The notes beneath the pieces were generated by a model, which made no database searches, was not told the DNA's origin, and saw only the letters and a program-made list of their open reading frames with translations. Shown one piece after another: positions 3,374 to 36,799 of a stretch of 36,799 bases of DNA; position 1 is the stretch's first letter; each line of letters starts with the position of its first letter. A program made the translations under genes and the position numbers. The stretch comes from Acidimicrobiales bacterium. GTDB taxonomy: Bacteria; Actinomycetota; Acidimicrobiia; Acidimicrobiales; VFJN01. The stretch is from positions 1 to 36,799 of the forward strand of contig DATFFY010000494.1 of NCBI GenBank assembly GCA_035249805.1. The letters are read 5' to 3'.

Positions 3374-4594
3374 TCAGCCCACGGCGCTGCGGGCCGCCAT
3401 GATCCGGCCCACGTTCTCGTCGCTGAAGAACTCCGGGATGGGCATCGTCCCGGCCTGCACGCTGACGAAGTCGTCCATGGCCTGCTGATCGGTCGAGACC
3501 GCGGCGAGCAGCTGCTCCATCTCGGGCGGCGGCGGCTGATCGACCTGGGCCAGGTCGAAGGTCATCTCGTACATCGCCATGACGTGCTCGTCCCGCGCTC
3601 GCTGGTACCCGGCCATCGCGTCCTCGTAGGGACTCGTCCCGGTCAACGCGTCGTGGAGGGCCGAGCTCACGCGCTCCGCATCGAGGAACGCGTCGGTGAT
3701 GCCCTGCGCGGTGATCGGGTGGAGGTGGTAGCCGGCGTCGCCCACGAGTGCCCAGCCGGGGCCGTAGGGCTTGCGGAAGTACCCGGCCAGGCCACTGGCC
3801 GCGTGGAACCGCTCCTCGCGCGTGCCGGCCCGCAGGCGCTCGCCCAACGCGGGGGCGAGGTCGGCGGTCCGCTGGAACGTGCCCTCGACGTCGCGGCGAG
3901 CAGCGTCGAACGCATCCTGGCCGAACCCGACGATCACCAGGGTGAGGTCGTCGTGGGTCGGGAACGCCGCCATGCCGCACGCCTCCCTCGCGTAGACCTC
4001 GAACCCGGAGCTGCCGACGCCGCTCCAGTACGAGTAGAAGGCGGGCCCGACGGCCGGCTTCTCGTTGTACTGCTCAGGCTGCACCGCCTTGGCCACCGAG
4101 GAGCTCCGGCCGTCGGCGCCGACGACGACCGCCGCCCGCTCGGTGACGGTGCTGCCGCCGGCGTCCTTGCCACGGATGCCGACCACCACCCCGTCCTCGA
4201 TGAGCACCTCGTCGATCGCGAAGCCCTCGCGGACCTCCACGCCGGCGTCGGACGCCGCGTGGACGAGCATCGCGTCCAGGACCGTCCGGCGCGGGCAGTA
4301 CGCCTCGGCCGTGCCCTCGCTGGGGCGAGGGGACCCGGCGATCGTGAAGGGCCCGAAGTCGAAGCTGTAGGTCCGGGCGGGAGGGCAGCCCGAGGCGGCC
4401 AGCGCGTCGCGGAGACCCCACCGCTCCAGCGCGGCGACGCCGGGCGGATGGATGAAGTGGGTGGACACCGTGTCGCTCGGGAACGTGGCTCGGTCGACCA
4501 ACAGCACCCGGTGGCCCTTCCGGGCGAGCAACATCGCCGTCGGTGCGCCCGCGCAGCGCCCGCCGACCACGATCGCGTCGTACGGCTTCGTCAT
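3374..4594 (-). CDS. FAD-dependent oxidoreductase/monooxygenase (geranylgeranyl-reductase-like flavoprotein)
   Basis: Dinucleotide-binding N-terminus YDAIVVGGRCAGAPTAMLLARKGHRVLLVD and GDAGYHLHPITAQGITDA near the C-terminal third. ATG 4594 is preceded by GAGGAGG. The extra 15 codons of the track ORF are R/P-rich. Confidence 0.8.
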   Translation of the reverse strand: MTKPYDAIVVGGRCAGAPTAMLLARKGHRVLLVDRATFPSDTVSTHFIHPPGVAALERWGLRDALAASGCPPARTYSFDFGPFTIAGSPRPSEGTAEAYCPRRTVLDAMLVHAASDAGVEVREGFAIDEVLIEDGVVVGIRGKDAGGSTVTERAAVVVGADGRSSSVAKAVQPEQYNEKPAVGPAFYSYWSGVGSSGFEVYAREACGMAAFPTHDDLTLVIVGFGQDAFDAARRDVEGTFQRTADLAPALGERLRAGTREERFHAASGLAGYFRKPYGPGWALVGDAGYHLHPITAQGITDAFLDAERVSSALHDALTGTSPYEDAMAGYQRARDEHVMAMYEMTFDLAQVDQPPPPEMEQLLAAVSTDQQAMDDFVSVQAGTMPIPEFFSDENVGRIMAARSAVG

Positions 4595-5972: not shown

Positions 5973-6059
5973 ATGGAGCTGTTGCTCTTCCTGGTCGTCG
6001 TCTTCATCGTGTTCATGGTCGCCGGCTGGGGCTGGCGCAGGGGGCGCAGCGGGGTCTGA
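5973..6059 (+). CDS. candidate 28-aa single-pass membrane peptide (not in ORF track, below size cutoff)
   Basis: GGAGG at 5964-5968, 4 nt before ATG 5973. MELLLFLVVVFIVFMVAGWGWRRGRSGV is a hydrophobic helix plus a basic anchor. All third codon positions are G/C. Confidence 0.35.
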   Translation: MELLLFLVVVFIVFMVAGWGWRRGRSGV

Positions 6060-7129: not shown

Positions 7130-8458
7130 TCAGGCCGGCTCGATGTTCTGGTTCCCCCGGAACACGTTCGTGGGGTCCCACTCGCCCTTGATGGCGGCGA
7201 GCCGGGCGTACTTCGCCTCGCCGTAGGCGGCCCGCACGCGATCCTCGCCCTCGTCGCCGATGAAGTTGAGGTACACGCCACCGGTCGCGTAGTGGGCGAT
7301 GTCACGGCGGAACGATCTCGCCCACTCGATGTTCTCGGCGTCGGCGGCCGCGCTCTCCCACACCGCGAACGGGTGGGTGATCCAGGTGGTCCCGCGCTTC
7401 GTCATCGGCGTCGCGTCCTCGCCGACGCGGGCGACGGCACCGCCCCACGGGATCATCAGCTGCTGCGTCAACGGCGACGGCCTGGAGAAGCCGTACTTCA
7501 CGAACACGTCGAGCGCGTCGTCGGGGAAGCTGTCGTGGTAGTCGGCCGACCAGTAGTTCCGGTTGCCGGGCGGGTCGTCGATCATGCACTGGAAGTCGGC
7601 GTACGGCATAGGACCGACGAGGTCGACCTCGGGCCCGAGGTCCTTGAACGGCTGCATCGCCTCGGCGCCATCCTCGACGGCACCGACCCAGAGGCCGGCG
7701 ATGCCGAGCACCGTCGTGCCCTGCAGGTGGGCCGGGACGAACTCCTCCGGCGGGCCGGTCAGGAACACCAGGCCCGTGCCCAGCTCGTCCGGCGCGTCGG
7801 CGGCGAGGTCGCGGTAGCGCCGCGCGACCTCGGCGGCAGCGTCGCCGGGCCAGAGCATCAGGCCGGCGGTCACCAGCGGGCCCAGCTCGTGCAGCGCGAA
7901 CACGAACGAGGTGGCGACACCGAAGTTGCCGCCGCCGCCGTGCAGCGCCCAGAACAGCTCGGGGTTCTCGTCCTCGCTCGCCGTGACCTCACGCCCGTCG
8001 GCTGTCACGAGATCGACCGACACGAGGTTGTCGCAGCTGAGGCCCCACGCCCGCTCCGTCCAGCCGGACCCGCCCCCGAGGGTCAGGCCGGCGACACCGG
8101 TCGTCGACACCCGCCCCCCCGTCGTGGCGAGGCCGTGCTCCTGCGTCGCCCGGTCCAGCTCGCCCCACGTGACGCCCGCGCCCACGCGCACCTGCCGGGC
8201 GGCCGCGTCGACCTCGATGGCCTTCATCGGGCGCACGTCGATGACCAGGCCCCCGTCGTTCAGGCAGACCCCCGCGACCGAGTGCCCGCCGGCCCGCACG
8301 GCGACGTCGTGCCCCTCGCTGCTGGCGAGCTGCAACGCCTCGCGGACGTCAGCGGGCGTCGCGCACGGCGCGATGACCGCCGGCCGCTTGTCGATCATCG
8401 AGTTGAAGACGGTGCGCGCCTCGTCGTAGCGCGCATCGTCGGGCCTGATCAGATCCAT
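7130..8458 (-). CDS. FAD-binding oxidoreductase (PCMH-type FAD_binding_4 plus BBE-like C-terminus)
   Basis: ATG 8458 (MDLIRPDDARYDEAR...). RPAVIAPCATPADVREALQLASSEGHDVAVRAGGHSVAG, and C-terminal YLNFIGDEGEDRVRAAYG...LAAIKGEWDPTNVFRGNQNI. The upstream 108 codons of the track ORF are R-rich shadow. Confidence 0.85.
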   Translation of the reverse strand: MDLIRPDDARYDEARTVFNSMIDKRPAVIAPCATPADVREALQLASSEGHDVAVRAGGHSVAGVCLNDGGLVIDVRPMKAIEVDAAARQVRVGAGVTWGELDRATQEHGLATTGGRVSTTGVAGLTLGGGSGWTERAWGLSCDNLVSVDLVTADGREVTASEDENPELFWALHGGGGNFGVATSFVFALHELGPLVTAGLMLWPGDAAAEVARRYRDLAADAPDELGTGLVFLTGPPEEFVPAHLQGTTVLGIAGLWVGAVEDGAEAMQPFKDLGPEVDLVGPMPYADFQCMIDDPPGNRNYWSADYHDSFPDDALDVFVKYGFSRPSPLTQQLMIPWGGAVARVGEDATPMTKRGTTWITHPFAVWESAAADAENIEWARSFRRDIAHYATGGVYLNFIGDEGEDRVRAAYGEAKYARLAAIKGEWDPTNVFRGNQNIEPA

Positions 8459-22338: not shown

Positions 22339-22833
22339 ATGACCGAACAGACGCCGAGCAGCGACGAAGGTGGCGAGGCCCCCTGCTTCGCACCCCTCTT
22401 CGAGGAACCTGATGCTCCGAGCGAACGACAGCTCGCGCAGCTCGTGCACGAGCTCGCCGATGCGGTGGTGATCGCGGACGCCGACGGCGCGATCACGTTC
22501 TGGAACGAGTCCGCGGCTCGCATCTTCGGTTGGTCACCGGCGGAGGCGATCGGCAGATCTCTCGACCTCATCATCCCCGAGAGGCTTCGGGACCGGCACT
22601 GGGCCGGGTACCGCGGCGTCATGGCGAGCGGCGAGACCCGTTACGGCGTGACGCTGCTCGAGGTCCCCGCATTGCACAAGGACGGCAGGCAGCTGTCGGT
22701 CGCGTTCACCGTCACCTTGCTCCGTCGACCCGGTGAGCGGCCGCACGGGATCGCCGCAGTGCTTCGCGATGACACCGTCCGTTGGACGGAGCGACGTCAG
22801 CTCACCGACCGCATCGCGGAGCTCGAGCGCTGA
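22339..22833 (+). CDS. stand-alone PAS-domain protein
   Basis: 164 aa. LADAVVIADADGAITFWNESAARIFGWSPAEAIGRSLDLIIPERLRDRHWAGY...HKDGRQLSVAFTV is a typical PAS S-box. No output domain. Confidence 0.85.
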   Translation: MTEQTPSSDEGGEAPCFAPLFEEPDAPSERQLAQLVHELADAVVIADADGAITFWNESAARIFGWSPAEAIGRSLDLIIPERLRDRHWAGYRGVMASGETRYGVTLLEVPALHKDGRQLSVAFTVTLLRRPGERPHGIAAVLRDDTVRWTERRQLTDRIAELER

Positions 22834-22839
22834 CCGGGC

Positions 22840-23544
22840 CTACGCCCCGCAGAACTTGACGCAGCACTGCCCGGCTTCGGGCTCGAGCCTCGGCACCAGC
22901 ACGCGGTCCCCCAGGTCGAGCGCGCTGCGCACGCCTCGCATCAGGTGGAGGTTCATGCCGCACACCAGGTCGGTGTACTGCTCCGCCAGGGAGTGGAAGG
23001 GGCAGTTGGCCAGGACGATGTCGCCGTCGACGAGTCGGGGCTCGAAGCTGTGGTCGCGGAGCACCTCGAGGAGGGCATCACGCTTCCTGGCCTTCGATGC
23101 TCGGCCTCCAGCGCGGGCGACCGCCTCGGACCCCAGGGTCTCGCCGAAGCGCTTGGCCGCCCGCTCGAGCTCCTGCCGAACCGAGCGGCCGGACCCCTCC
23201 GACGCCGCGATGGCTTCGGCAAGCAATCGGCCGGCGAGGTCGTACTCGCGCGGTGGGAGAGACACCGCGATCTGGCGTTCCGACCGTCGGTACAGCTTGG
23301 CTGGCCGGCCAGCGCCCGGACCCGTCCTGCCCGTGAGCCGTCGGAACTCGACGTCGAGCAGGCCCTCCTCGACCAGCCTGTCGAGGTGGAACGCAGCGAG
23401 GCTGCGTTGCACACCGACGGCCTCCGCAGCCCGCTCGCGGCCAACCGGCCCGTCGCTGTTGACCACGAAGAGGTAGAGGGCGCGACGAATCGGGTCGTGC
23501 AACGCGGCGATGCCCGCTACTTGGCTCTCGAGGTCTCGGGTCAC
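22840..23544 (-). CDS. ArsR-like winged-HTH regulator with a Cys-containing C-terminal domain (paralog of 29031..29690)
   Basis: GTG 23544. LHDPIRRALYLFVV...PVGRERAAEAVGVQRSLAAFHLDRLVEEGLL...GRPAKLY. C-terminal VLANCPFHSLAEQYTDLVCGMNLHLMRG...EAGQCC. Confidence 0.75.
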   Translation of the reverse strand: MTRDLESQVAGIAALHDPIRRALYLFVVNSDGPVGRERAAEAVGVQRSLAAFHLDRLVEEGLLDVEFRRLTGRTGPGAGRPAKLYRRSERQIAVSLPPREYDLAGRLLAEAIAASEGSGRSVRQELERAAKRFGETLGSEAVARAGGRASKARKRDALLEVLRDHSFEPRLVDGDIVLANCPFHSLAEQYTDLVCGMNLHLMRGVRSALDLGDRVLVPRLEPEAGQCCVKFCGA

Positions 23545-28325: not shown

Positions 28326-28961
28326 TCACCGGTTGGGCTGCGCCGTCGTGCGGAGGTAGTGCGTGTGGGTCGTGAAGCCCTTCGGGAACTCGACCTTCGC
28401 GTCCTCATCGGACACTGCCGGGGAGATGATCACGTCGTCCCCCTCGTTCCAGTCCACCGGCGTGGAGACCGGGAACTCCGCGCTGAGCTGCAGAGCGTCG
28501 AGCACCCGGATGACCTCGTCGATGTTCCGGCCGATCGAGGCCGGGTAGGTGAGTGTGAGCTGCACCTTCTTGTCCGGCCCGATGACGAACACGGTGCGCA
28601 CCGTCGAGGTGGCCAGCGCCTCGGGGTGGATCATCCCGTACAGCTCCGCGACGACGCGGTCCGGGTCGCCGATGAGGGGAAAGTTGGGTGCCACGCCCTG
28701 GGTCGCCGCGATGTCCGCCGACCAGCCCTCGTGCGACGAGACGTCGTTGACGCTGATCCCGATGAGCTTGGTGTTGCGCTTCGTGAACTCGTCCTTGCGC
28801 CTGGCGAAGGCGCCCAGCTCCGTGGTGCACACGGGCGTGAAGTCCGCCGGGTGCGAGAAGAGGACGCCCCAGCTGTCGCCGAGGTACTCGTGCAGGGACA
28901 CCTTCCCCTCCGTGGTGTCCGCGGTGAAGTCAGGGGCTGTCTGGCCGAGCTGGATCGTCAT
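28326..28961 (-). CDS. 1-Cys peroxiredoxin (Prx6-type)
   Basis: APDFTADTTEGKVSLHEYLGDSWGVLFSHPADFTPVCTTELG...LIGISVN...TVRTVFVIGPDKKV...GRNIDEVIRVLDALQ. No resolving Cys seen. Confidence 0.9.
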   Translation of the reverse strand: MTIQLGQTAPDFTADTTEGKVSLHEYLGDSWGVLFSHPADFTPVCTTELGAFARRKDEFTKRNTKLIGISVNDVSSHEGWSADIAATQGVAPNFPLIGDPDRVVAELYGMIHPEALATSTVRTVFVIGPDKKVQLTLTYPASIGRNIDEVIRVLDALQLSAEFPVSTPVDWNEGDDVIISPAVSDEDAKVEFPKGFTTHTHYLRTTAQPNR

Positions 28962-28973
28962 GAGGCGCTGCTT

Positions 28974-28993
28974 TCTCTAGTAAGTACTAGAGA
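28974..28993. promoter_or_regulatory. 20-bp palindrome TCTCTAGTA-AG-TACTAGAGA (operator candidate, site 1)
   Basis: 9-bp perfect arms. Lies 12 nt upstream of the peroxiredoxin ATG (28961) and downstream of the HTH-regulator stop (29031). Core is TCTAGT-N4-ACTAGA. Confidence 0.6.
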
Positions 28994-29030: not shown

Positions 29031-29690
29031 TCAGGAAGGTTGGAAGTGCACTGCGAGCTCGCAACCGGCCTTGCGCGGATCCTTGGCGACGAGCTTCTCG
29101 ACGGAGGCGTCGGTGCCCTCGACGAGTCCCTCCGCGAGCCCGAGGTGCAGCTGGCACACGGTCTCGCGGTCGGCCATCACCGTGGTCACGAACGGACAGC
29201 GATCGAGGACGACCTTTCCCCGCGCCCCTCGCCGGCGAGCGCGAGGGGCGAACCCCTGGCGTGCCATCGCGATCGTGAGCGTCTCGAGCGGGTCGGCGTC
29301 GGCGGGAAGCTCGGCTCGCATGAGCCTCCCGGCATCACGACCGACCTCCACTGCGGTGCGGCCCGACCTGATGATCTCCGTGAGGAGCACTGTCAGGCGT
29401 TCGTAGGGACCGGTGACCCCCCAGCGGCTGTCCACCCCGGGCGCCACCTCATAGACGAGGCGCGGGCGGCCCCGCCCGATGGCCGCTGCCTTCTCCTCGA
29501 TCACCAGGCCGGCGGCAAGGAGCTTCGCGAGGTGCTGGCGGATCGCGTTGTGGTTGAGACCCATGAGATCGGTCAGCTCCGCGATGTCCACGGGCCGCCC
29601 AGCGCTGGCGACGTGGCTGAAGATCGCATGCCGCGTCGGATCGCCCAAGGCGCGGGCTTCTTGCTGAAGGCTCACCGACGCGGTCGTCAC
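29031..29690 (-). CDS. ArsR-like winged-HTH regulator with a Cys-containing C-terminal domain (paralog of 22840..23544)
   Basis: GTG 29690. LGDPTRHAIFSHVASAGRPVDIAELTDLMGLNHNAIRQHLAKLLAAGLV...GRGRPRLVY. C-terminal VVLDRCPFVTTVMADRETVCQLHLGLAEG...KAGC. Confidence 0.75.
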   Translation of the reverse strand: MTTASVSLQQEARALGDPTRHAIFSHVASAGRPVDIAELTDLMGLNHNAIRQHLAKLLAAGLVIEEKAAAIGRGRPRLVYEVAPGVDSRWGVTGPYERLTVLLTEIIRSGRTAVEVGRDAGRLMRAELPADADPLETLTIAMARQGFAPRARRRGARGKVVLDRCPFVTTVMADRETVCQLHLGLAEGLVEGTDASVEKLVAKDPRKAGCELAVHFQPS

Positions 29691-29712: not shown

Positions 29713-29728
29713 TCTACTCCGTACTAGA
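29713..29728. promoter_or_regulatory. operator candidate, site 2: TCTACT-CCGT-ACTAGA (one arm mismatch)
   Basis: 22 nt upstream of the regulator GTG (29690) in the divergent intergenic region. Shares GTACTAGAG with site 1. Confidence 0.5.
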
Positions 29729-29768: not shown

Positions 29769-29784
29769 TCTAGTAGACACTAGA
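29769..29784. promoter_or_regulatory. operator candidate, site 3: TCTAGT-AGAC-ACTAGA
   Basis: Perfect 6-bp arms. Preceded by a T7 run (29763-29769) and ends 1 nt before ATG 29786. Contains TAGACA 6 nt upstream of the ATG. Confidence 0.6.
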
Positions 29785-29785
29785 T

Positions 29786-30187
29786 ATGACTACGCTCACG
29801 GAGTCGACCTCGCAGGCAGCCAGCGACGGGCCCATGGGCGAGGTGCCCAGGACCCTACGAGCGGTGGTCCGAGGTTCGCTCATCGGCGTCGTCGTCGCGT
29901 TCACGGGAGTCGGGGGATCCCTCTACCTGTCTGGCCACGACGCCGGCGTGGCGCTCGGCATCGGAGGTATGGCGGCCTTCTGGGGAGGCCTCGGGTTCGG
30001 CTCCATGCTCGGTGGGACGCTGCACCTCATCCGGCATTCGGGCGAGCCCTACGGCCACTCCCGCGCGCCCGGGTCCCAAGCGGTTCCGTTGGGGAGACGG
30101 GACGCAGAGCTCACCCCGCGGCGGGCCGAGGCCTGGACACGACAGGTCGGAGGTGCCGCCGATGCCCCTGCTTCGTCGGGTTCTTGA
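29786..30187 (+). CDS. small membrane protein (2 predicted TM helices, Gly-zipper-like)
   Basis: 133 aa. SLIGVVVAFTGVGGSLYL and VALGIGGMAAFWGGLGFGSMLGG. No SD (leaderless geometry). The 3' end overlaps the next CDS by 26 nt. M17 (29834) is the alternative start. Confidence 0.55.
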   Translation: MTTLTESTSQAASDGPMGEVPRTLRAVVRGSLIGVVVAFTGVGGSLYLSGHDAGVALGIGGMAAFWGGLGFGSMLGGTLHLIRHSGEPYGHSRAPGSQAVPLGRRDAELTPRRAEAWTRQVGGAADAPASSGS

Positions 30188-32168
30188 TCCCCATCCCTGC
30201 GGGAGCCTCGTCCAGTACGAGCACCAAGGCGGAGGCCGAGGGCTCGCCCGCGCCCGCCGGCTGGGTCCCAGCGGCATCATCGCCGAGATCACCGCCGCCG
30301 GCCTGCGGGGCCGCGGCGGCGCCGGCTTCCGAGCTGGCGTCAAGTGGCAGACCGTCGCCGACAGCGCCTCCAGAACCGCGGGGACGTCCGTGGTGGTCAA
30401 CGGGGCCGAAGGCGAGCCCGGCACCTTCAAGGACAGGACCCTGCTCCGTTGCAACCCCTACAAGGTGCTCGAGGGCGCGCTGATCGCTGCGGTCGCAGTG
30501 GACGCGGCGGAGATCGTGGTCGGCCTCAAGCACGTGTTCGAGCGGGAGATCGCAGAGGTCTCCCGTGCGATCGTGGAGCTCCGGGAGGCGGGCTGGACGG
30601 ATGACCTTCGCGTCCGCGTCGTCGAAGGGCCGAGCAGCTACCTCTTCGGGGAGGAGACCGCGCTCCTCGAGGTCGTGGAGGGTCGGCAGCCCTTTCCCCG
30701 GGTCGATCCCCCATACCGGCGCGGCCTCGACCCCCTGCACCGGGATTCCGGTCACAGCGCGGCCCGTGTGCACCTCGCGGCGATCGGTGGGACCGACAGC
30801 CCGCCCGCGCTCGTCAACAACGTCGAGACCATGGCGAACGTGCCCGGCATCCTCGAGCACGGGCCCGACTGGTACCGAGCGATCGGCACCGACGAGTCGC
30901 CGGGAAGCCTTCTCTGCACGATCACCGGCCACACTCGCCGGCACGCCGTCGGGGAGGTGCCGATGGGCACCACCGTCCGGGAGGCCATCGCGCTGATCGG
31001 CGGGGGGCCTCGGGCCGGGCGACAGGTCCTCGCTGTCCTGTCCGGCGTCGCCAATCCGATCCTGCCGGCCGCACTGCTCGACACGCCGCTGTCCTTCGAG
31101 GCCCTGGCCCGCGTCGGGTCGGGCCTCGGGGCCGGCGGCCTCATCGTCTTCCAGGACGGCACGGACCTCCTCGACGTCGCCCATGCCGTTGCACGGTTCC
31201 TCGCAGTCGAGTCGTGCGGCCAATGCGAGCCGTGCAAGCGAGACGGCCTCGCCATCGCAGACGTCCTGGCGACGATCATCAGCGGACGAGGCAGCGACCG
31301 GGTAGAGCGTGAGCTCGTGGGACGCCTCGAGACGGTGACCCGTGGGGCGCGCTGTGCGCTCGCGACCCAGCAGGAGCAGGTGATCGCGAGCATCGTCGAG
31401 CTCCTCGACGGGCCGCTCGGCGGGTCCGATCCTCGCGGTGATGGTGCAGCGTTGCTCTTGCCTGTGGTGGACATCATCGAGGGCCGGGCCGTGCTCGACA
31501 CCGCCCAGGACACGAAGAACCCTGACTGGACCTACTCGCAGCGAGACTCCGGAAGCTGGCCCGCAGCTCGGCTCGGCAACGCACCGGTCCAGATCGGCCC
31601 AGCCCGGGTCCGGGAGGACCTGACGGCGAGCCGCATGGCATCCGTCGCCGTCCCGGTGACCGGCCCACGGCATCCACTCGCCAGCCTTGCCCACGCGCAC
31701 GATTCGCTCCTCGCTGACCTGAGGGCCGCCACCGAGGCTCCTCCTGCAGAGCGGGCACGGTCTCTACGAGCCCTGGCGAGCAAGCTTCTCGTGCACGTCG
31801 ACGTGACCCGGCGGGTGCTCTACCCGATGGTTCGCCGGGTTGCGGGCACCGAGGGCGACGCCTCGAGCGCGGACGGCTCCCGCAGTGAGCTCGCCGGCTT
31901 GCGCCTCGTCGAGGAGATGGAGAGGAGCAGCAGCCTGGTGGCCACTGATGACGACGCGCTGCAGCAGCTCGAGCAGCACCTACGCGCCCACATCGAGGCC
32001 GAGCGGGATCGAGTGATACCCCTTCTCGTCGCGTCGCTGGACCACGAAGCCCTCGACGCGCTCGAGAACGCGCTCAACGAGGCGCGCCTGCGAGCCCAGG
32101 ACGTCCACGGTCTGGAAGCCTCGCGAACCCGCGCGGCTCTGGAAGCGAACCTCGGAGAGGCCTCGTGA
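30162..32168 (+). CDS. orphan NuoF-like (complex I 51-kDa-type) flavo-iron-sulfur protein with a hemerythrin-like C-terminal extension
   Basis: GGAGG 10 nt upstream of ATG 30162. GLRGRGGAGFRAGVKW (NADH site), VVNGAEGEPGTFKDR, YLFGEETALLEVVEG (FMN site), and ESCGQCEPCKRDG...ARCAL (4Fe-4S Cys). About 230 extra C-terminal residues contain HVDVTRRVLYP and HIEAERDRVIPLL. Confidence 0.8.
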   Translation: MPLLRRVLDPHPCGSLVQYEHQGGGRGLARARRLGPSGIIAEITAAGLRGRGGAGFRAGVKWQTVADSASRTAGTSVVVNGAEGEPGTFKDRTLLRCNPYKVLEGALIAAVAVDAAEIVVGLKHVFEREIAEVSRAIVELREAGWTDDLRVRVVEGPSSYLFGEETALLEVVEGRQPFPRVDPPYRRGLDPLHRDSGHSAARVHLAAIGGTDSPPALVNNVETMANVPGILEHGPDWYRAIGTDESPGSLLCTITGHTRRHAVGEVPMGTTVREAIALIGGGPRAGRQVLAVLSGVANPILPAALLDTPLSFEALARVGSGLGAGGLIVFQDGTDLLDVAHAVARFLAVESCGQCEPCKRDGLAIADVLATIISGRGSDRVERELVGRLETVTRGARCALATQQEQVIASIVELLDGPLGGSDPRGDGAALLLPVVDIIEGRAVLDTAQDTKNPDWTYSQRDSGSWPAARLGNAPVQIGPARVREDLTASRMASVAVPVTGPRHPLASLAHAHDSLLADLRAATEAPPAERARSLRALASKLLVHVDVTRRVLYPMVRRVAGTEGDASSADGSRSELAGLRLVEEMERSSSLVATDDDALQQLEQHLRAHIEAERDRVIPLLVASLDHEALDALENALNEARLRAQDVHGLEASRTRAALEANLGEAS

Positions 32169-32914
32169 AGCTCGTCGTGGGTGTCGATGAGACCCCGGAG
32201 TCGGCGGCGGCGGTCACCTGGGCGGCAGCACTCGCAGGTGCCTCGGCCTCGACCGTCACCATCGCCGAGGTGTTCGAGCCCGAGGAGGCGGAGCGCCCAC
32301 CGGAGCATGCAGCAGAGCTGCGCCGAGAGGCCGGCCATCGACTGACCTCGTGGGTCGAGCGCCTGGGCCTGGGTCTCCCCCACTGCGCTGCGCTCGCTCT
32401 GGAAGGCCGGCCCGTCGGTTCTCTCGCTGCGCTCGCCGACCGCTCCGGAGCGGACGCGTTGATCATCGGCTCGAAGCCCTATGAGGGCGTCAGCCGCTGG
32501 GCGCTGGGCAGCCTGGCCCATGCGCTCGTCCACCACGTCCACTGCCCGCTCATCGTGGTCCCGAACGCCGGCGCGGACCTGACCGGTGGTCAGCTGCTGG
32601 TGTGCGACGACGACACCGAGGGCGGCCGCGTAGCAGTGCAATGGGCCAGGAACCTCGGCGGGCAGGTCGGAGCGGAGGTCGAGGTCGTACGACCGGACGG
32701 CCGCGATCCCGCCCGACAGCTTCGGGCCCTGGCCTGGGAGACCAGCGCTGGATTGCTGGTCGTCCCCGCCCGGTCGCATCACAGCTTCGATGGCTGGCTC
32801 GTCGGCGCCCTGCCCGATGCGCTGCTCCACCACCCCACCTGTCCTGTCGCCGTCCTGCCGTACGGGTACCTGACCCGCTCTCGCGATCTTCTCCGCTCCG
32901 GGAGCCGGCCATGA
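32165..32914 (+). CDS. universal stress protein (tandem USP domains)
   Basis: GTG 32165 overlaps upstream TGA 32166-32168. KLVVGVDETPESAAAV...ALIIGSKPYEGVSRWALGSLAHALVHHVHCPLIVVP, then a second, more degenerate domain ending HHPTCPVAVLP. Confidence 0.8.
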   Translation: MKLVVGVDETPESAAAVTWAAALAGASASTVTIAEVFEPEEAERPPEHAAELRREAGHRLTSWVERLGLGLPHCAALALEGRPVGSLAALADRSGADALIIGSKPYEGVSRWALGSLAHALVHHVHCPLIVVPNAGADLTGGQLLVCDDDTEGGRVAVQWARNLGGQVGAEVEVVRPDGRDPARQLRALAWETSAGLLVVPARSHHSFDGWLVGALPDALLHHPTCPVAVLPYGYLTRSRDLLRSGSRP

Positions 32915-33378
32915 CGGAGCGGCCCGCCTTCCCTGCCCGCCCTCTCCCCCCGGGGTATAGAAACGATCCCGTGAGACTGCTCATCGCAGCGGGCGAGACG
33001 GCTTCTGATCTCTCCGAGCTGCCCGACGGTGTTCGCTCCCTCGTCGACGCGGCGTCGGAGATCCTGGTGATGTCCCCGAGCCTCACGGGACGGCTCAACT
33101 GGTTGACCGGCGACAACGCCCGCGCCCGTCGCCTCGCCGATGACCGCCTCGAAGCCGTCCTCGGCCAGCTCGAGACCGAAGGCGTCGCCGCGTCCGGCAT
33201 GCGCGGAGACGAGCTGCCCAGGACAGCGTTCGCGGATGCCGTCCTGCAGTTCGCCCCTGATCACATCCTCATCGGCCTTCGTTCGGGCGCTCACCGAGGC
33301 TGGCAGGAGCGAGGTCTGCTCGATCACCTCGTCGATCGCTTCCGGTTGCCCTTGACCGTGTTCGTGCTCGACGCGTGA
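32911..33378 (+). CDS. hypothetical protein (alpha/beta, possibly degenerate USP-like)
   Basis: ATG 32911 overlaps upstream TGA (ATGA). 155 aa with good codon bias. No motif recognised. Confidence 0.6.
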   Translation: MTERPAFPARPLPPGYRNDPVRLLIAAGETASDLSELPDGVRSLVDAASEILVMSPSLTGRLNWLTGDNARARRLADDRLEAVLGQLETEGVAASGMRGDELPRTAFADAVLQFAPDHILIGLRSGAHRGWQERGLLDHLVDRFRLPLTVFVLDA

Positions 33379-34274
33379 TGAGTACCCCTGAGGCGACCCC
33401 TCGCCTTCCCGATGTGCACGTCAACAACGTGCTCGTGCCGTTGGACGGGTCGGAGCTCGCGCTCCAGGCGATGCCGACTGCTCGGGTGCTCGCGCAACGC
33501 CTCGATGCGGATCTGCACACCGTCACCGTGGCCAACGGCCCTCCCGACGCCGACCGAGCGCGTGCCCTGTCGGCCGCGGCACTCGGCGTGTCGCCGGACG
33601 ACGAGCGCGTGTCCGTGGTCAACGAAGGTGACCCCGCAGAGGTGATCGCTCGGCACGCCAAGGCGCTCGGCTCGTGCTTGGTGTGCCTAGCGACCCATGG
33701 CCGCGGCAGGTTGAGCGGCGCGCTCGTAGGTTCGGTCGCGCGATCTGTGTTGCACCTCTCGGACGGTCCGGTCGTCGCGCTTGGGCCTTCGGCGGACAAT
33801 CCTGGGTGGTCGCCTCGCCCGAGGGGTTGGCCGGAGCCGCTGTCGGTCTCCCGGATCGTGGCGTGCGTCGACGGCAGCACTGCATCCGAGCAGGTTCTTC
33901 CGCTCGCAACGGGTTGGGCCAGGGCTCTCGAGATGTCACTCACGATCCTCACCGTCATCGATGACGCTCCGACCGCCGTCAGAGCGGCCCGCGGGCAGGC
34001 TCGCTACGGAGGCCACGCGGAACCTGCGACCTACATCGAGGAGCTCGTGGAGCGGTTGCGGTCACAGCTCCCGGACGTGGACGGCGAGGTGGTGCGCGAC
34101 CCGATCGGCGCCGCCGGCGGCATCCGAGCTCACTTGGACCGGCGTCCGGCGGGTCTCGTCGCGTTGACAACCCATGCACGCTCGGGGTTGCAACGAGTCA
34201 TGCTCGGCGCGGCGGCGGCCAGCATCGTCCACGCCTCGGTTGCCCCCTGCCTGGTCTCACCGGTGCGTCCGTGA
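33375..34274 (+). CDS. universal stress protein (tandem USP domains)
   Basis: GTG 33375 or ATG 33378 overlaps upstream TGA 33376-33378. VLVPLDGSELALQAM...CLATHGRGRLSGALVGSVARSVLHLSDGPVVAL, and a second domain IVACVDGSTASEQVL...ALTTHARSGLQRVMLGAAAASIVHASVAPCLV. Confidence 0.85.
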   Translation: MMSTPEATPRLPDVHVNNVLVPLDGSELALQAMPTARVLAQRLDADLHTVTVANGPPDADRARALSAAALGVSPDDERVSVVNEGDPAEVIARHAKALGSCLVCLATHGRGRLSGALVGSVARSVLHLSDGPVVALGPSADNPGWSPRPRGWPEPLSVSRIVACVDGSTASEQVLPLATGWARALEMSLTILTVIDDAPTAVRAARGQARYGGHAEPATYIEELVERLRSQLPDVDGEVVRDPIGAAGGIRAHLDRRPAGLVALTTHARSGLQRVMLGAAAASIVHASVAPCLVSPVRP

Positions 34275-34302
34275 TCCCCCAGGCCAACCGGCGGCGGCGA
34301 GC

Positions 34303-34614
34303 ATGAGCGATCCGACCGTCGTCGAGGAGATCGCGTCACTGCGCGACCGCGGCTACGTCGCTGACTTCAGGGTCACTCTCGCCGGGCAGCTGTACTGCGA
34401 CACCTGCGGCCACGTCCTCGAGGCCAGCGCCGCAGTGATCGAGTCGACCGCTCGCTTCGAGGGAGCATCGAACCCCGATGACCAAGCGGTCGTCTTCGGG
34501 CTTTGGGCGGGCGTGCGTGGGGTCCTCGTGGCCGCCTACGGCCCGACCGCGACGGCAGCGGAGGCCGCCGTCGTGACCGCTCTCTCGCATCCTCCGTCTG
34601 ACCGAGCGAGCTAG
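34303..34614 (+). CDS. small hypothetical protein with a CxxC pair
   Basis: ATG 34303. 103 aa. RGYVADFRVTLAGQLYCDTCGHVLEASAAVIESTARFEGASNPDDQAVVFG. The upstream part of track ORF 34174..34614 is shadow of the preceding gene. Confidence 0.55.
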   Translation: MSDPTVVEEIASLRDRGYVADFRVTLAGQLYCDTCGHVLEASAAVIESTARFEGASNPDDQAVVFGLWAGVRGVLVAAYGPTATAAEAAVVTALSHPPSDRAS

Positions 34615-34647
34615 TCCGCGAAACGCCCGTCGACCTGACCAGGTCGG

Positions 34648-35526
34648 TCAGATGTTCGCTTGCTCTGGAGGCGCGGCGTCGCGCGCCGGGAGCGATGCGG
34701 CGGCACGATCGCTCGTCGGATCCGGACAGTCGGCGCCCAGCGTGTAGCTCGTCATCGATATCGATCCGTAGGCGGAACCCTCGACGAGGACCTGGGGTGT
34801 GTCGCCCGTCGCGGCGGCGAGGGCCGCGATGTAGAGCAGCGGGATGAAGTGGTCAGGGGTGGGCACCGCAAGGCCGAAGTCCTTGTGCTCGACGAGCTTC
34901 AGGACGTCGCCTGGGTTGTCCCGCATCAGCGAGGTGGCAGCCTCGTCGAAGCGGCGGTTCCAGTCGAAGCCGCCGGCAGGCTGGTCCCAGTCGATGCGGC
35001 GGAGGTTGTGCACGAGGTTTCCACTGCCCACGACAAGGATCCCGTGATCGCGCAGCGGGGCCAACCGAGCGCCGAGGTCGAGGTGGTCGTCGAGGGGCTG
35101 CAGAGCGTTGATCGAGAGCTGCACCACCGGGACGTCGGCATGCGGGAACATGTGCGCCAACACCGACCACGTGCCGTGGTCGAGCCCCCAGCTGTCGACA
35201 TCGAGGCCGACCCACCGCGGCTTGACGGTCTCGACGACGAGCTCGGCGACCTCCGGGTTGCCCGGGGCGGGATAGTCGAACGCGAACAGCTCGTCGGGAA
35301 ATCCGTAGAAGTCGTGGATCACGCGGGGACGCGGCATCGCCGTCACCGCCGTTGCGTTGGTGTACCAGTGGGCCGAGATCGAAAGGACGGCGCGGGGTGT
35401 GGCGACGCAGTCGCCGAAGGCGCGCCAGGAGTCCGTGTAGCGGTTGTGCTCGAGGGTGTTCATCGGGCTTCCGTGCCCGACGAACACAGCCGGCATCGTC
35501 GAGAGGTCGGTCACTGGGGGCTCCAT
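34648..35526 (-). CDS. 4,5-DOPA dioxygenase extradiol-like (LigB/YgiD family)
   Basis: MPAVFVGHGSPMNTLE...LSISAHW...VIHDFYGFPDELF...DHGTWSVL...VVQLSI...ILVVGSGNLVHNL. Start at ATG 35526 (GGAG upstream, overlaps the pirin gene by 16 nt) or ATG 35496. Confidence 0.85.
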   Translation of the reverse strand: MEPPVTDLSTMPAVFVGHGSPMNTLEHNRYTDSWRAFGDCVATPRAVLSISAHWYTNATAVTAMPRPRVIHDFYGFPDELFAFDYPAPGNPEVAELVVETVKPRWVGLDVDSWGLDHGTWSVLAHMFPHADVPVVQLSINALQPLDDHLDLGARLAPLRDHGILVVGSGNLVHNLRRIDWDQPAGGFDWNRRFDEAATSLMRDNPGDVLKLVEHKDFGLAVPTPDHFIPLLYIAALAAATGDTPQVLVEGSAYGSISMTSYTLGADCPDPTSDRAAASLPARDAAPPEQANI

Positions 35527-36669: not shown

Positions 36670-36799
36670 TCACCTGTGGGGCAAGCCGGCCCGGTCGGTT
36701 GGGGGCACCACCACGATGGGGCACTCTGCGTGGTGGGCCAGCTGGTAGCTGACCGAACCCAGCAGTAGCTCCCGGAACCCGCCGAGGCCTCTCGAACCG
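36670..36799 (-). CDS. universal stress protein, C-terminal end only (5' part outside window)
   Basis: Minus-strand frame open to the window edge reads [42 protein letters not shown](TGA), the canonical USP C-terminal ATP-loop/helix/strand motif. Not in the ORF track because there is no start inside the window. Confidence 0.8.

Follow-up and report, generated by a model that had tools for sequence, protein, structure and literature searches.

What could an operon do that joins a NuoF-like flavoprotein, a hemerythrin-like domain and several universal stress proteins (USPs) behind one operator? This question arises in a stretch of 36,799 nucleotides from an Acidimicrobiales bacterium (assembly GCA_035249805.1, contig DATFFY010000494.1). 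The stretch, here called the window, is the whole 36.8-kb contig C494 of a 2.9-Mb genome (81% complete, about 70% G+C). Its relatives are metagenome-assembled genomes of Acidimicrobiia, uncultured bacteria from environmental metagenomes. Between positions 29786 and 34614 the window carries six genes, g1 to g6, on the forward strand. The second gene, g2, encodes a stand-alone NuoF-like flavo-iron-sulfur protein with a hemerythrin-like domain at its C-terminus. We propose that nitric oxide (NO) or oxidants derepress the operon, that in the g2 enzyme NAD(P)H powers a hemerythrin-like site of mycobacterial type, and that the USPs are its partners. With a probability of roughly 0.45, this reading falls somewhat short of an even chance. 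Gene structure, domains, cofactor motifs, fusions, neighbourhoods and operator conservation were established directly and are described in turn.

Organization of the six genes

The genes are tightly packed. The stop codon of g1 (TGA at 30185-30187) lies inside g2, whose ATG is at 30162, giving an overlap of 26 nt. The junctions of g2 with g3, g3 with g4, and g4 with g5 consist of GTGA (32165-32168), ATGA (32911-32914) and GTGATG (33375-33380), respectively. A gap of 28 nt separates the g5 stop at 34274 from the g6 ATG at 34303. Purine-rich ribosome-binding sites precede g2 (GGAGG, 9 nt 5' of its ATG), g3 (GGAGAGG) and g4 (GGGAG). All six frames show the GC phasing of coding sequence, highest at codon position 3 and lowest at position 2. 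All six also have homologues, and g2, g3 and g5 score above the curated Pfam cut-offs. A pattern scan found no promoter-like or terminator-like site within the operon, the sole terminator-like site being upstream of g1. An intrinsic terminator was also sought 3' of g6; the hairpin at 34634-34650 does not stand out from shuffled sequence (z = -1.35). The Rfam scan of the window returned no RNA family.

A preliminary description of this DNA had given exactly these positions for the six genes, their overlaps, the junction GTGATG and the gap of 28 nt, and the homologues confirm that every frame is real. It had also described an operon that begins at an operator site; the junctions and the operator position support a translationally coupled operon that begins at the operator of a divergent winged-helix regulator. 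Judged from sequence, the six genes are a genuine translationally coupled operon, probably leaderless. From the overlaps, the short gaps and the lack of internal promoter or terminator sites, we infer a single transcript across g1-g6.

Some other frames were considered and rejected. A start of g2 at GTG 30012 was ruled out, since the N-termini of homologues (for example MPLIWRVLD) match the ATG at 30162 and the upstream sequence has non-coding GC phasing. Likewise, the antisense open reading frames (ORFs) 32779-33327 and 33324-33656, over g4 and g5, were dropped in favour of plus-strand genes with hundreds of homologues. The G+C content at third codon positions (GC3) is 0.79-0.85 in g1-g6, whereas the adjoining genes for peroxiredoxin, cupredoxin and LigB have 0.88-0.96. 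This lower GC3 would fit an operon more recently assembled as a mosaic.

The NuoF-like module of g2

The g2 gene (30162-32168, +) encodes 668 amino acids with the Pfam domains Complex1_51K, SLBB, NADH_4Fe-4S and Hemerythrin. The module for FMN and NAD(P)H binding and for the N3 [4Fe-4S] cluster comprises residues 43-413 (30288-31400, +). It presents the motifs GLRGRGGAGF (47-56), AEGEPGTFKDR (82-92), GEETALLEVVEGR (163-175) and NNVET (219-223), followed by the cluster motifs ESCGQCEPCK (350-359) and GARCAL (395-400). The FMN- and NAD(P)H-binding motifs align with those of Mycobacterium smegmatis NuoF, the closest solved structure (8e9g), and the motifs of the module are conserved in 40 homologues. 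The four N3 cysteines, C352, C355, C358 and C398, are intact in g2 and invariant in the family.

Nevertheless, g2 differs from a canonical NuoF, with which it shares about 39% identity. It scores 265.9 bits against the NCBIfam NuoF equivalog TIGR01959, below the cut-off of 558.65. In a maximum-likelihood tree, an orphan NuoF-like clade stands apart from canonical NuoF with support of 100/99. Throughout this clade, an insertion of about 16-25 residues follows PPY(R)RGL, compared with PPFPAxxG in the canonical proteins; in g2 it occupies residues ~186-207 (window 30717-30782). No NuoE-like domain was found in g2. No NuoE or NuoG homologue flanks the Acidimicrobiia orphan loci, and such homologues appear only at distant non-actinobacterial outgroup loci. 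To our knowledge, every NuoF module described so far has partners of NuoE and NuoG type.

The genome has three orphan NuoF paralogues besides the true nuoF on contig C212. The orphan paralogues at C248:572-1972 and C305:1929-3311 (51% and 47% identical to g2) lack the hemerythrin domain. They end just past the PDW/DSG linker motif. In g2 the corresponding linker, conserved as PDW...DSG...PV, leads into the C-terminal hemerythrin domain.

The hemerythrin-like domain of g2

The hemerythrin-like (HHE) domain covers residues 511-622 (31692-32027, +). It matches PF01814 with 34.5 bits (cut-off 25.3), as do 20 of the 22 family members. On these matches the domain assignment is robust. The family profile of the domain matches Mka HLP, the hemerythrin-like protein (HLP; structure 6Q09) of Mycobacterium kansasii, at an E value of 1e-5, and YtfE at about 0.007. 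The combination of linker and hemerythrin domain is rare. It was seen in just 75 cluster representatives out of 1.84 billion, most of them C-termini of proteins of about 640 amino acids. A literature search for NuoF together with hemerythrin gave nothing relevant, and neither the family of NuoF-hemerythrin enzymes nor its fusions with USPs seem to have been described.

The published metal ligands of 6Q09 are His11, His45, Glu49, Tyr54, His71, His105 and Glu109 (PMC6993866). We placed them on the family-profile alignment. Five positions are kept in g2: His11 corresponds to H513, His45 to H545, Tyr54 to Y554, His105 to H610 and Glu109 to E614. The position of the unusual tyrosine ligand is conserved as VLYPM. 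Two positions have changed. Glu49, the bridging ligand on helix 2, is replaced by Thr549, and His71 by E576, which like the five kept residues sits at a ligand position. A metal site in g2 is plausible, although non-canonical.

A separated arrangement was observed at the locus L042. It has a NuoF-like gene of 476 amino acids and, on the opposite strand some 0.5 kb further downstream, a separate ORF (7946-8287, -) whose product shares 31% identity with the hemerythrin portion of g2. The pair is a split version of the NuoF-hemerythrin fusion.

Universal stress protein partners

USPs are abundant proteins whose partners are mostly unknown. They are nucleotide-binding regulatory domains. Two genes of the operon encode tandem-domain USPs with two PF00582 stretches each: g3 (32165-32914, +; E 5.5e-32, 111.7 bits) and g5 (33375-34274, +; E 1.8e-29, 103.5 bits). 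Between them, g4 (32911-33378, +) has no Pfam match, and its assignment comes from the predicted fold. Its AlphaFold2 model (pLDDT 68) matches TT0030 (2iel) and USP structures with E values of ~1e-4 and TM scores of ~0.56. By this model, g4 is a third, divergent single-domain protein of USP fold. With 590 homologues and such a fold, it outgrows the label "hypothetical" that it had carried. Across the genome there are eight USP-domain matches. Five of them are in the window, counting a further USP gene that the contig border truncates and of which the C-terminal part remains at 36703-36798 (-).

We compared 76 loci holding relatives of g2, using tblastn with all six proteins. Only g2 and the USPs recur; g6 was found twice. 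A USP is fused to the NuoF-like gene or lies within 250 nt of it in 17 loci. All but one of these carry the hemerythrin domain (present in about 45 loci), and they belong to at least four subclades. In five loci (L005, L006, L011, L013 and L014) the NuoF-like module, the hemerythrin-like domain and a g3-like tandem USP at the C-terminus form one polypeptide of about 990-1010 amino acids. These ORFs were taken from the match at about position 6001 of the locus onwards, and from 512 onwards in L014. Each contains a low-complexity linker of about 90 residues, and each has a TCTAGT-N4-(A/C)CTAGA palindrome upstream. Three of the five loci, L005, L006 and L011, have in addition a USP resembling g5 immediately ahead of NuoF-hemerythrin. 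That the NuoF-hemerythrin protein and the USPs belong together, as had been suggested, is borne out by the adjacent and fused genes.

The g4 gene shows another distribution. It is present in only 4 of 121 genomes of the order, and it occurs otherwise in unrelated stress contexts. The g4/g5 pair was found without NuoF, and convergent, in L077. At L082:4359-6417, the genes for a HisKA_3 kinase and a response regulator of GerE type immediately precede a g4 homologue (53% identical), and cytochrome bd oxidase genes stand about 1.3 kb from it. Such a setting resembles DosRS and is unlike that of g4 in the window.

Operator and regulator

The operator is a 16-bp palindrome of the form TCTAGT-N4-ACTAGA. 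Allowing at most one mismatch, it has three sites only in the 2.9-Mb genome, all in the window. Site 1, TCTAGTAAGTACTAGA (28976-28991), is an exact palindrome 15 nt upstream of the start codon of a peroxiredoxin gene. Site 2, TCTACTCCGTACTAGA (29713-29728), has one mismatch, lies beside the start of the regulator gene itself and is kept in L078. Site 3, TCTAGTAGACACTAGA (29769-29784), has a T-run on its upstream flank and ends one nucleotide before the ATG of g1. Since the palindrome stops one base before the start codon, no space is left for a Shine-Dalgarno sequence, and g1 lacks a ribosome-binding site.

The operator is conserved in relatives. The 16-mer of site 3 with the following T and ATG is identical ahead of g1 homologues in L078 and L085, and a version with one mismatch precedes that of L083. 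In L005, L006, L011, L013, L014 and L074, the palindrome is flanked by A/T runs and stands 60-110 nt ahead of NuoF-hemerythrin(-USP) or of the USP that precedes it. As a rough estimate, about 0.2 matches would be expected by chance in the roughly 0.8 Mb of related loci.

Site 1 extends the set of putative targets. The gene behind it encodes a 1-Cys peroxiredoxin (28326-28961, -; Pfam AhpC-TSA and 1-cysPrx_C) and lies outside the six-gene operon. Orthologues stand behind the same operator in L014, L078 and L085. The peroxiredoxin would be co-regulated with the operon through site 1.

The gene of the regulator (29031-29690, -) is divergent from the operon. It encodes 219 amino acids with an HTH_20/HTH_5 domain and a weak SufR match. 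The protein presents a GRGRP AT-hook, the cysteines Cys165, Cys179 and Cys210, and His182 three residues past the second cysteine. SufR-like COG2345 regulators with a [4Fe-4S] cluster are defined by an AT-hook, three cysteines and a metal-capable ligand at +3 of the second cysteine (bioRxiv 10.64898/2025.12.26.696629). All the sequence features of this SufR/ArnR-like group are present: besides the winged helix, the protein has the central AT-hook with GRP, the three C-terminal cysteines and one more residue able to bind a metal. In ArnR, the cysteines are 179, 193 and 223 (PMC12343034). The spacing of 14 and 31 residues in the window compares with 14 and 30 there. We presume that the protein is a [4Fe-4S] repressor of the operon, of SufR/ArnR type. 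An analogy with the ArsR-type regulator Rv0081 had been drawn from the sequence. It is not sustained, since the AT-hook and the three-cysteine signature point to SufR/ArnR and not to a metal-sensing ArsR.

SufR and ArnR are the only members of this family with known targets (bioRxiv 10.64898/2025.12.26.696629). ArnR represses hmp and nar, and the nitrosylation of its cluster leads to loss of DNA binding, whereas O2 degrades the cluster only slowly (PMC12343034). Anaerobiosis is sensed by ArnR through NO (PMC12343034).

We also looked for the operator upstream of sufB in the genome. None is present at the one copy with upstream DNA, the other copy being cut by a contig end. In L085, a palindrome with one mismatch (4324-4339) has a divergent sufB-sufC-sufD operon on one side and a globin-like gene on the other. 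Its place beside sufBCD suggests that the regulator may also control iron-sulfur cluster assembly in some relatives.

Other regulators of this kind were observed. L023 has a SufR/ArnR-like regulator gene 123 nt from NuoF-hemerythrin, in divergent orientation. Within the window, a stand-alone PAS-domain protein (22339-22833, +) is convergent with a second SufR/ArnR-like paralogue (22840-23544, -), with 6 bp between them.

The first and last genes

The first gene, g1 (29786-30187, +), encodes a small membrane protein with two transmembrane (2-TM) segments and a glycine zipper. Among its 25 homologues the AFWGGLGFGxMxGG helix is invariant, His80 and Arg83 are nearly invariant, and the tail is variable. 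In the preliminary description this protein was proposed to anchor the NuoF-like enzyme to the membrane. The comparison does not bear this out. In more than 70 related loci, searched in three frames over 700 nt upstream, no 2-TM ORF recurs ahead of NuoF-hemerythrin. Homologues of g1 stand behind the same operator and are followed by a DksA/TraR zinc-finger gene (L083) or by peroxiredoxin (L085, L014). They are divergent from a globin-like gene or from the regulator. From its place behind the same operator elsewhere, ahead of genes other than NuoF, g1 is a member of the regulon and not an anchor of NuoF.

The last gene, g6 (34303-34614, +), encodes a small conserved alpha+beta protein of a four-cysteine family. 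No Pfam family covers it, and its 183 homologues are 65-93% identical. Its model (pLDDT 86) found no match in the PDB, the best being at E 0.1 and TM 0.33. The family consensus includes two CxxC pairs, of which the copy in the window keeps only the first. The second was lost in g6 and in a 93%-identical relative by a three-residue deletion (LW---A-GVR compared with LRCxGC-GVR). The name "CxxC protein" given to g6 therefore holds for one pair and misses the second, which the family has and this copy lost. A paralogue at C55:1324-1605, 38% identical, keeps all four cysteines. Relatives of g6 adjoin NuoF-like genes in five other genomes (L037, L050, G041, G114 and G079).

Synteny and stress context

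The full gene order comprises trHb-like, CopD-like, peroxiredoxin, regulator, g1-g6, LigB and pirin genes. It recurs only in L078, a close relative with 70-95% amino-acid identity whose assembly contains frameshifts. Beyond this single locus, the six-gene order was not found in other genomes, and g4 is itself scarce among the genomes of the order. The conserved core is the fusion of the NuoF-like module and the hemerythrin-like domain together with tandem USPs.

The surroundings of this core are rich in stress genes. In L001, L014, L023, L027 and L029, NuoF-hemerythrin has a catalase gene within 1-2.6 kb. Either as neighbours or through a shared operator, the peroxiredoxin, a globin-like gene and a zinc-finger gene of DksA/TraR type belong to the same setting. 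Genes of hyc type and genes for NuoE or NuoG were not found nearby, and no suf or isc gene lies next to NuoF-hemerythrin in the 76 loci. Neither was an output domain (kinase, cyclase or DNA-binding) found fused or consistently adjacent. The idea of a redox-stress module, present already in the preliminary description, is supported by these contexts.

Function of the operon

We read the operon as a mosaic of four units. One would be the operator with the glycine-zipper membrane protein g1, a "leader" gene of the regulon elsewhere too. Another would be g2 with its tandem USP partner g3. The divergent USP-fold g4 and the tandem USP g5 might form the third, and g6, whose relatives recur beside NuoF-like genes, the last.

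For the signal that induces the operon, the route of the electrons, the substrate and the role of the USPs, we propose the following. NO, or another agent that damages the cluster, would release the repressor from the site that covers the leaderless start, and transcription would begin at the ATG of g1. In the g2 protein, NAD(P)H would be oxidised at FMN, and electrons would pass through the N3-type [4Fe-4S] cluster to the hemerythrin-like site. This site could turn over NO, peroxide or O2. In function, g2 would correspond to flavohaemoglobin, though without haem; in Corynebacterium, flavohaemoglobin detoxifies NO and is controlled by ArnR. The USP domains, five with that of g4, might bind nucleotides and partner, regulate or stabilise g2.

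Mka HLP is an NO peroxidase that, without H2O2, yields at best stoichiometric nitrite or nitrate in vitro (PMC8913304). A built-in reductase might remedy this limitation. A more specific proposal, which we advance tentatively and regard as rather doubtful, is that NuoF-hemerythrin(-USP) is an undescribed, self-sufficient and NAD(P)H-driven non-haem iron enzyme. It would remove NO or peroxide catalytically, be gated by USPs, and stand under a new Acidimicrobiia branch of SufR/ArnR-type regulators. If this were true, the fusion would point to the kind of reductase partner that is missing from the stand-alone mycobacterial HLPs, and to a type of electron source for these proteins, which are linked to macrophage survival. 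In the USP fusions, tandem USPs are joined to a single, defined redox enzyme, which offers a testable pair of USP and client, and the operon adds a set of targets to the SufR/ArnR family. The practical impact will be modest until the enzyme is expressed and assayed, its hosts being uncultured Acidimicrobiia.

Several observations weigh against the proposed reading. The Mka HLP match is weak (E 1e-5). The metal site of g2 departs from the canonical one at the Glu49 and His71 positions, and the histidine of helix 4 is absent in several family members; with ligands so altered and variable, a di-iron centre is not assured. The palindrome is missing from about 60 of the 76 NuoF-hemerythrin loci, and the link to the regulator is limited to one sublineage. 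Moreover, g1 and g4 have no specific association with NuoF, and the g6 of the window has lost half of its cysteine site.

The same variable ligands would suit a different role, in which the hemerythrin-like domain senses O2, NO or iron and g2, with or without its USP, either transduces a redox signal or is an NAD(P)H diaphorase that is gated and passes electrons to an external acceptor. USPs, being nucleotide-binding regulatory domains, would fit there too. Short NuoF-like forms without hemerythrin make up about 20 of the 76 loci and are interleaved in the tree, so the NuoF module can apparently work without that domain. In bacteria, fusions of hemerythrin-like domains to signalling modules are numerous (PMC6993866). 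However, the missing output domain, the nearest solved relative being an enzyme, and the neighbourhood of detoxifying enzymes make a sensor unlikely. Repair of iron-sulfur clusters or iron is another function to weigh. The operon would then be a YtfE/RIC-like system with its own reductase, and a regulator of the SufR family would report the status of clusters. The YtfE match of the family profile and the palindrome of L085, between sufB and a globin gene, are consistent with it. Nevertheless, that match (E 0.007) is weaker than the one to Mka HLP, the operator is not found at the sufB copy whose upstream DNA is present, and suf or isc genes adjoin NuoF-hemerythrin in 0 of the 76 loci. We consider repair quite unlikely.

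The preliminary description favoured a module for hypoxia or dormancy, akin to the DosR/Rv0081 region, with g1 as the anchor of the NuoF-like enzyme. The 26-nt overlap of g1 and g2, kept in L078, would agree with it, as would the clustering of several USPs with a redox enzyme and the g4 homologue of L082 after its HisKA_3/GerE pair near the cytochrome bd genes. Regulators of ArnR type also report anaerobiosis, indirectly, via NO. On the other hand, none of more than 70 relatives has a 2-TM ORF upstream of NuoF-hemerythrin, and g1 homologues lead peroxiredoxin or DksA-type genes and not NuoF. The regulator resembles SufR/ArnR, not DosR or Rv0081; hyc, NuoE and NuoG are not found nearby; and the co-regulated gene is a peroxiredoxin, with catalases as frequent neighbours. 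Such a module is improbable, and hypoxia would be an indirect possibility only, acting through NO as in ArnR. What stands of the earlier interpretation is the redox-stress operon and the real link among NuoF, hemerythrin and USPs; the anchor, the DosR/Rv0081 analogy and the conserved six-gene synteny do not. Finally, independent stress genes could have come by chance under one promoter, with only the g2-USP pair working together. The single recurrence of the six-gene order, in L078, would fit this, and so would the near absence of g4 from the order, the unrelated contexts of g1 and g4 elsewhere, and the GC3 of the operon compared with its neighbours. Yet tight overlaps of 4 and 26 nt join five genes, and g5-like USPs and g6 relatives recur by NuoF-like genes in other lineages. 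We hold a chance assembly to be very unlikely as well.

Comparison with known systems

One of the closest parallels to the proposed NO- or oxidant-derepressed operon is Hmp under ArnR in Corynebacterium glutamicum. As in Hmp, a reductase module in g2 is fused to a metal domain that would react with O2 or NO, and the regulator is presumed to be an iron-sulfur protein of SufR/ArnR type. ArnR leaves its DNA on reaction with NO (PMC12343034), and the regulator described here is likened to it by sequence features. The modules are different. The reductase of g2 is of NuoF type (FMN and [4Fe-4S]), whereas Hmp has an FNR-like FAD domain; the putative metal site of g2 is a non-haem hemerythrin-like bundle, and that of Hmp is a globin. 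The operators differ as well, with 16 bp of TCTAGT-N4-ACTAGA here and a short (10-bp) consensus for ArnR (bioRxiv 10.64898/2025.12.26.696629).

Compared with the mycobacterial HLPs (Mka HLP, 6Q09; Rv2633c), the g2 domain shares the tyrosine in place of a histidine ligand, within VLYPM, and the alignment reaches the region of the fifth helix. The positions His11, His45, His105 and Glu109 of Mka HLP are kept. Conversely, Glu49 is threonine and His71 is glutamate in g2, and the similarity is low (E 1e-5). The HLPs are stand-alone proteins, reported only from pathogenic mycobacteria (PMC8913304, PMC6993866), whereas the g2 domain is fused to a reductase.

With NuoF (Nqo1, the 51-kDa subunit) and the diaphorase subunits HydB, NfnB, FdsB and HoxF, g2 shares the fold and the FMN, NAD(P)H and N3 [4Fe-4S] motifs. 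Unlike NuoF, it comes without a NuoE-like domain or gene and without NuoG, and it scores below the NCBIfam cut-offs. It adds the clade-specific insertion past PPY, the PDW...DSG...PV linker and the C-terminal hemerythrin domain.

The DosR regulon of Mycobacterium tuberculosis (USPs such as Rv2623; Rv0081 with hyc) likewise gathers several USP genes with redox proteins as a stress set. Its regulator belongs to a different family, and its hydrogenlyase or complex I partners are not present here. The preliminary description saw no DosR box in this DNA, a box at which no search was aimed here; the operator found is a different one. The co-regulated and neighbouring genes of our operon (peroxiredoxin, catalase) point instead to defence against peroxide and NO.

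In the di-iron detoxifiers of NO and O2 that have dedicated reductases (the flavodiiron protein NorV with NorW; YtfE/RIC), as proposed here, NAD(P)H feeds a flavin and metal relay towards a non-haem iron site for NO, under a regulator that responds to NO. The folds of the reductase and of the iron domain differ from those of g2. In g2, the partners lie in one chain, and only here are they accompanied by USPs.

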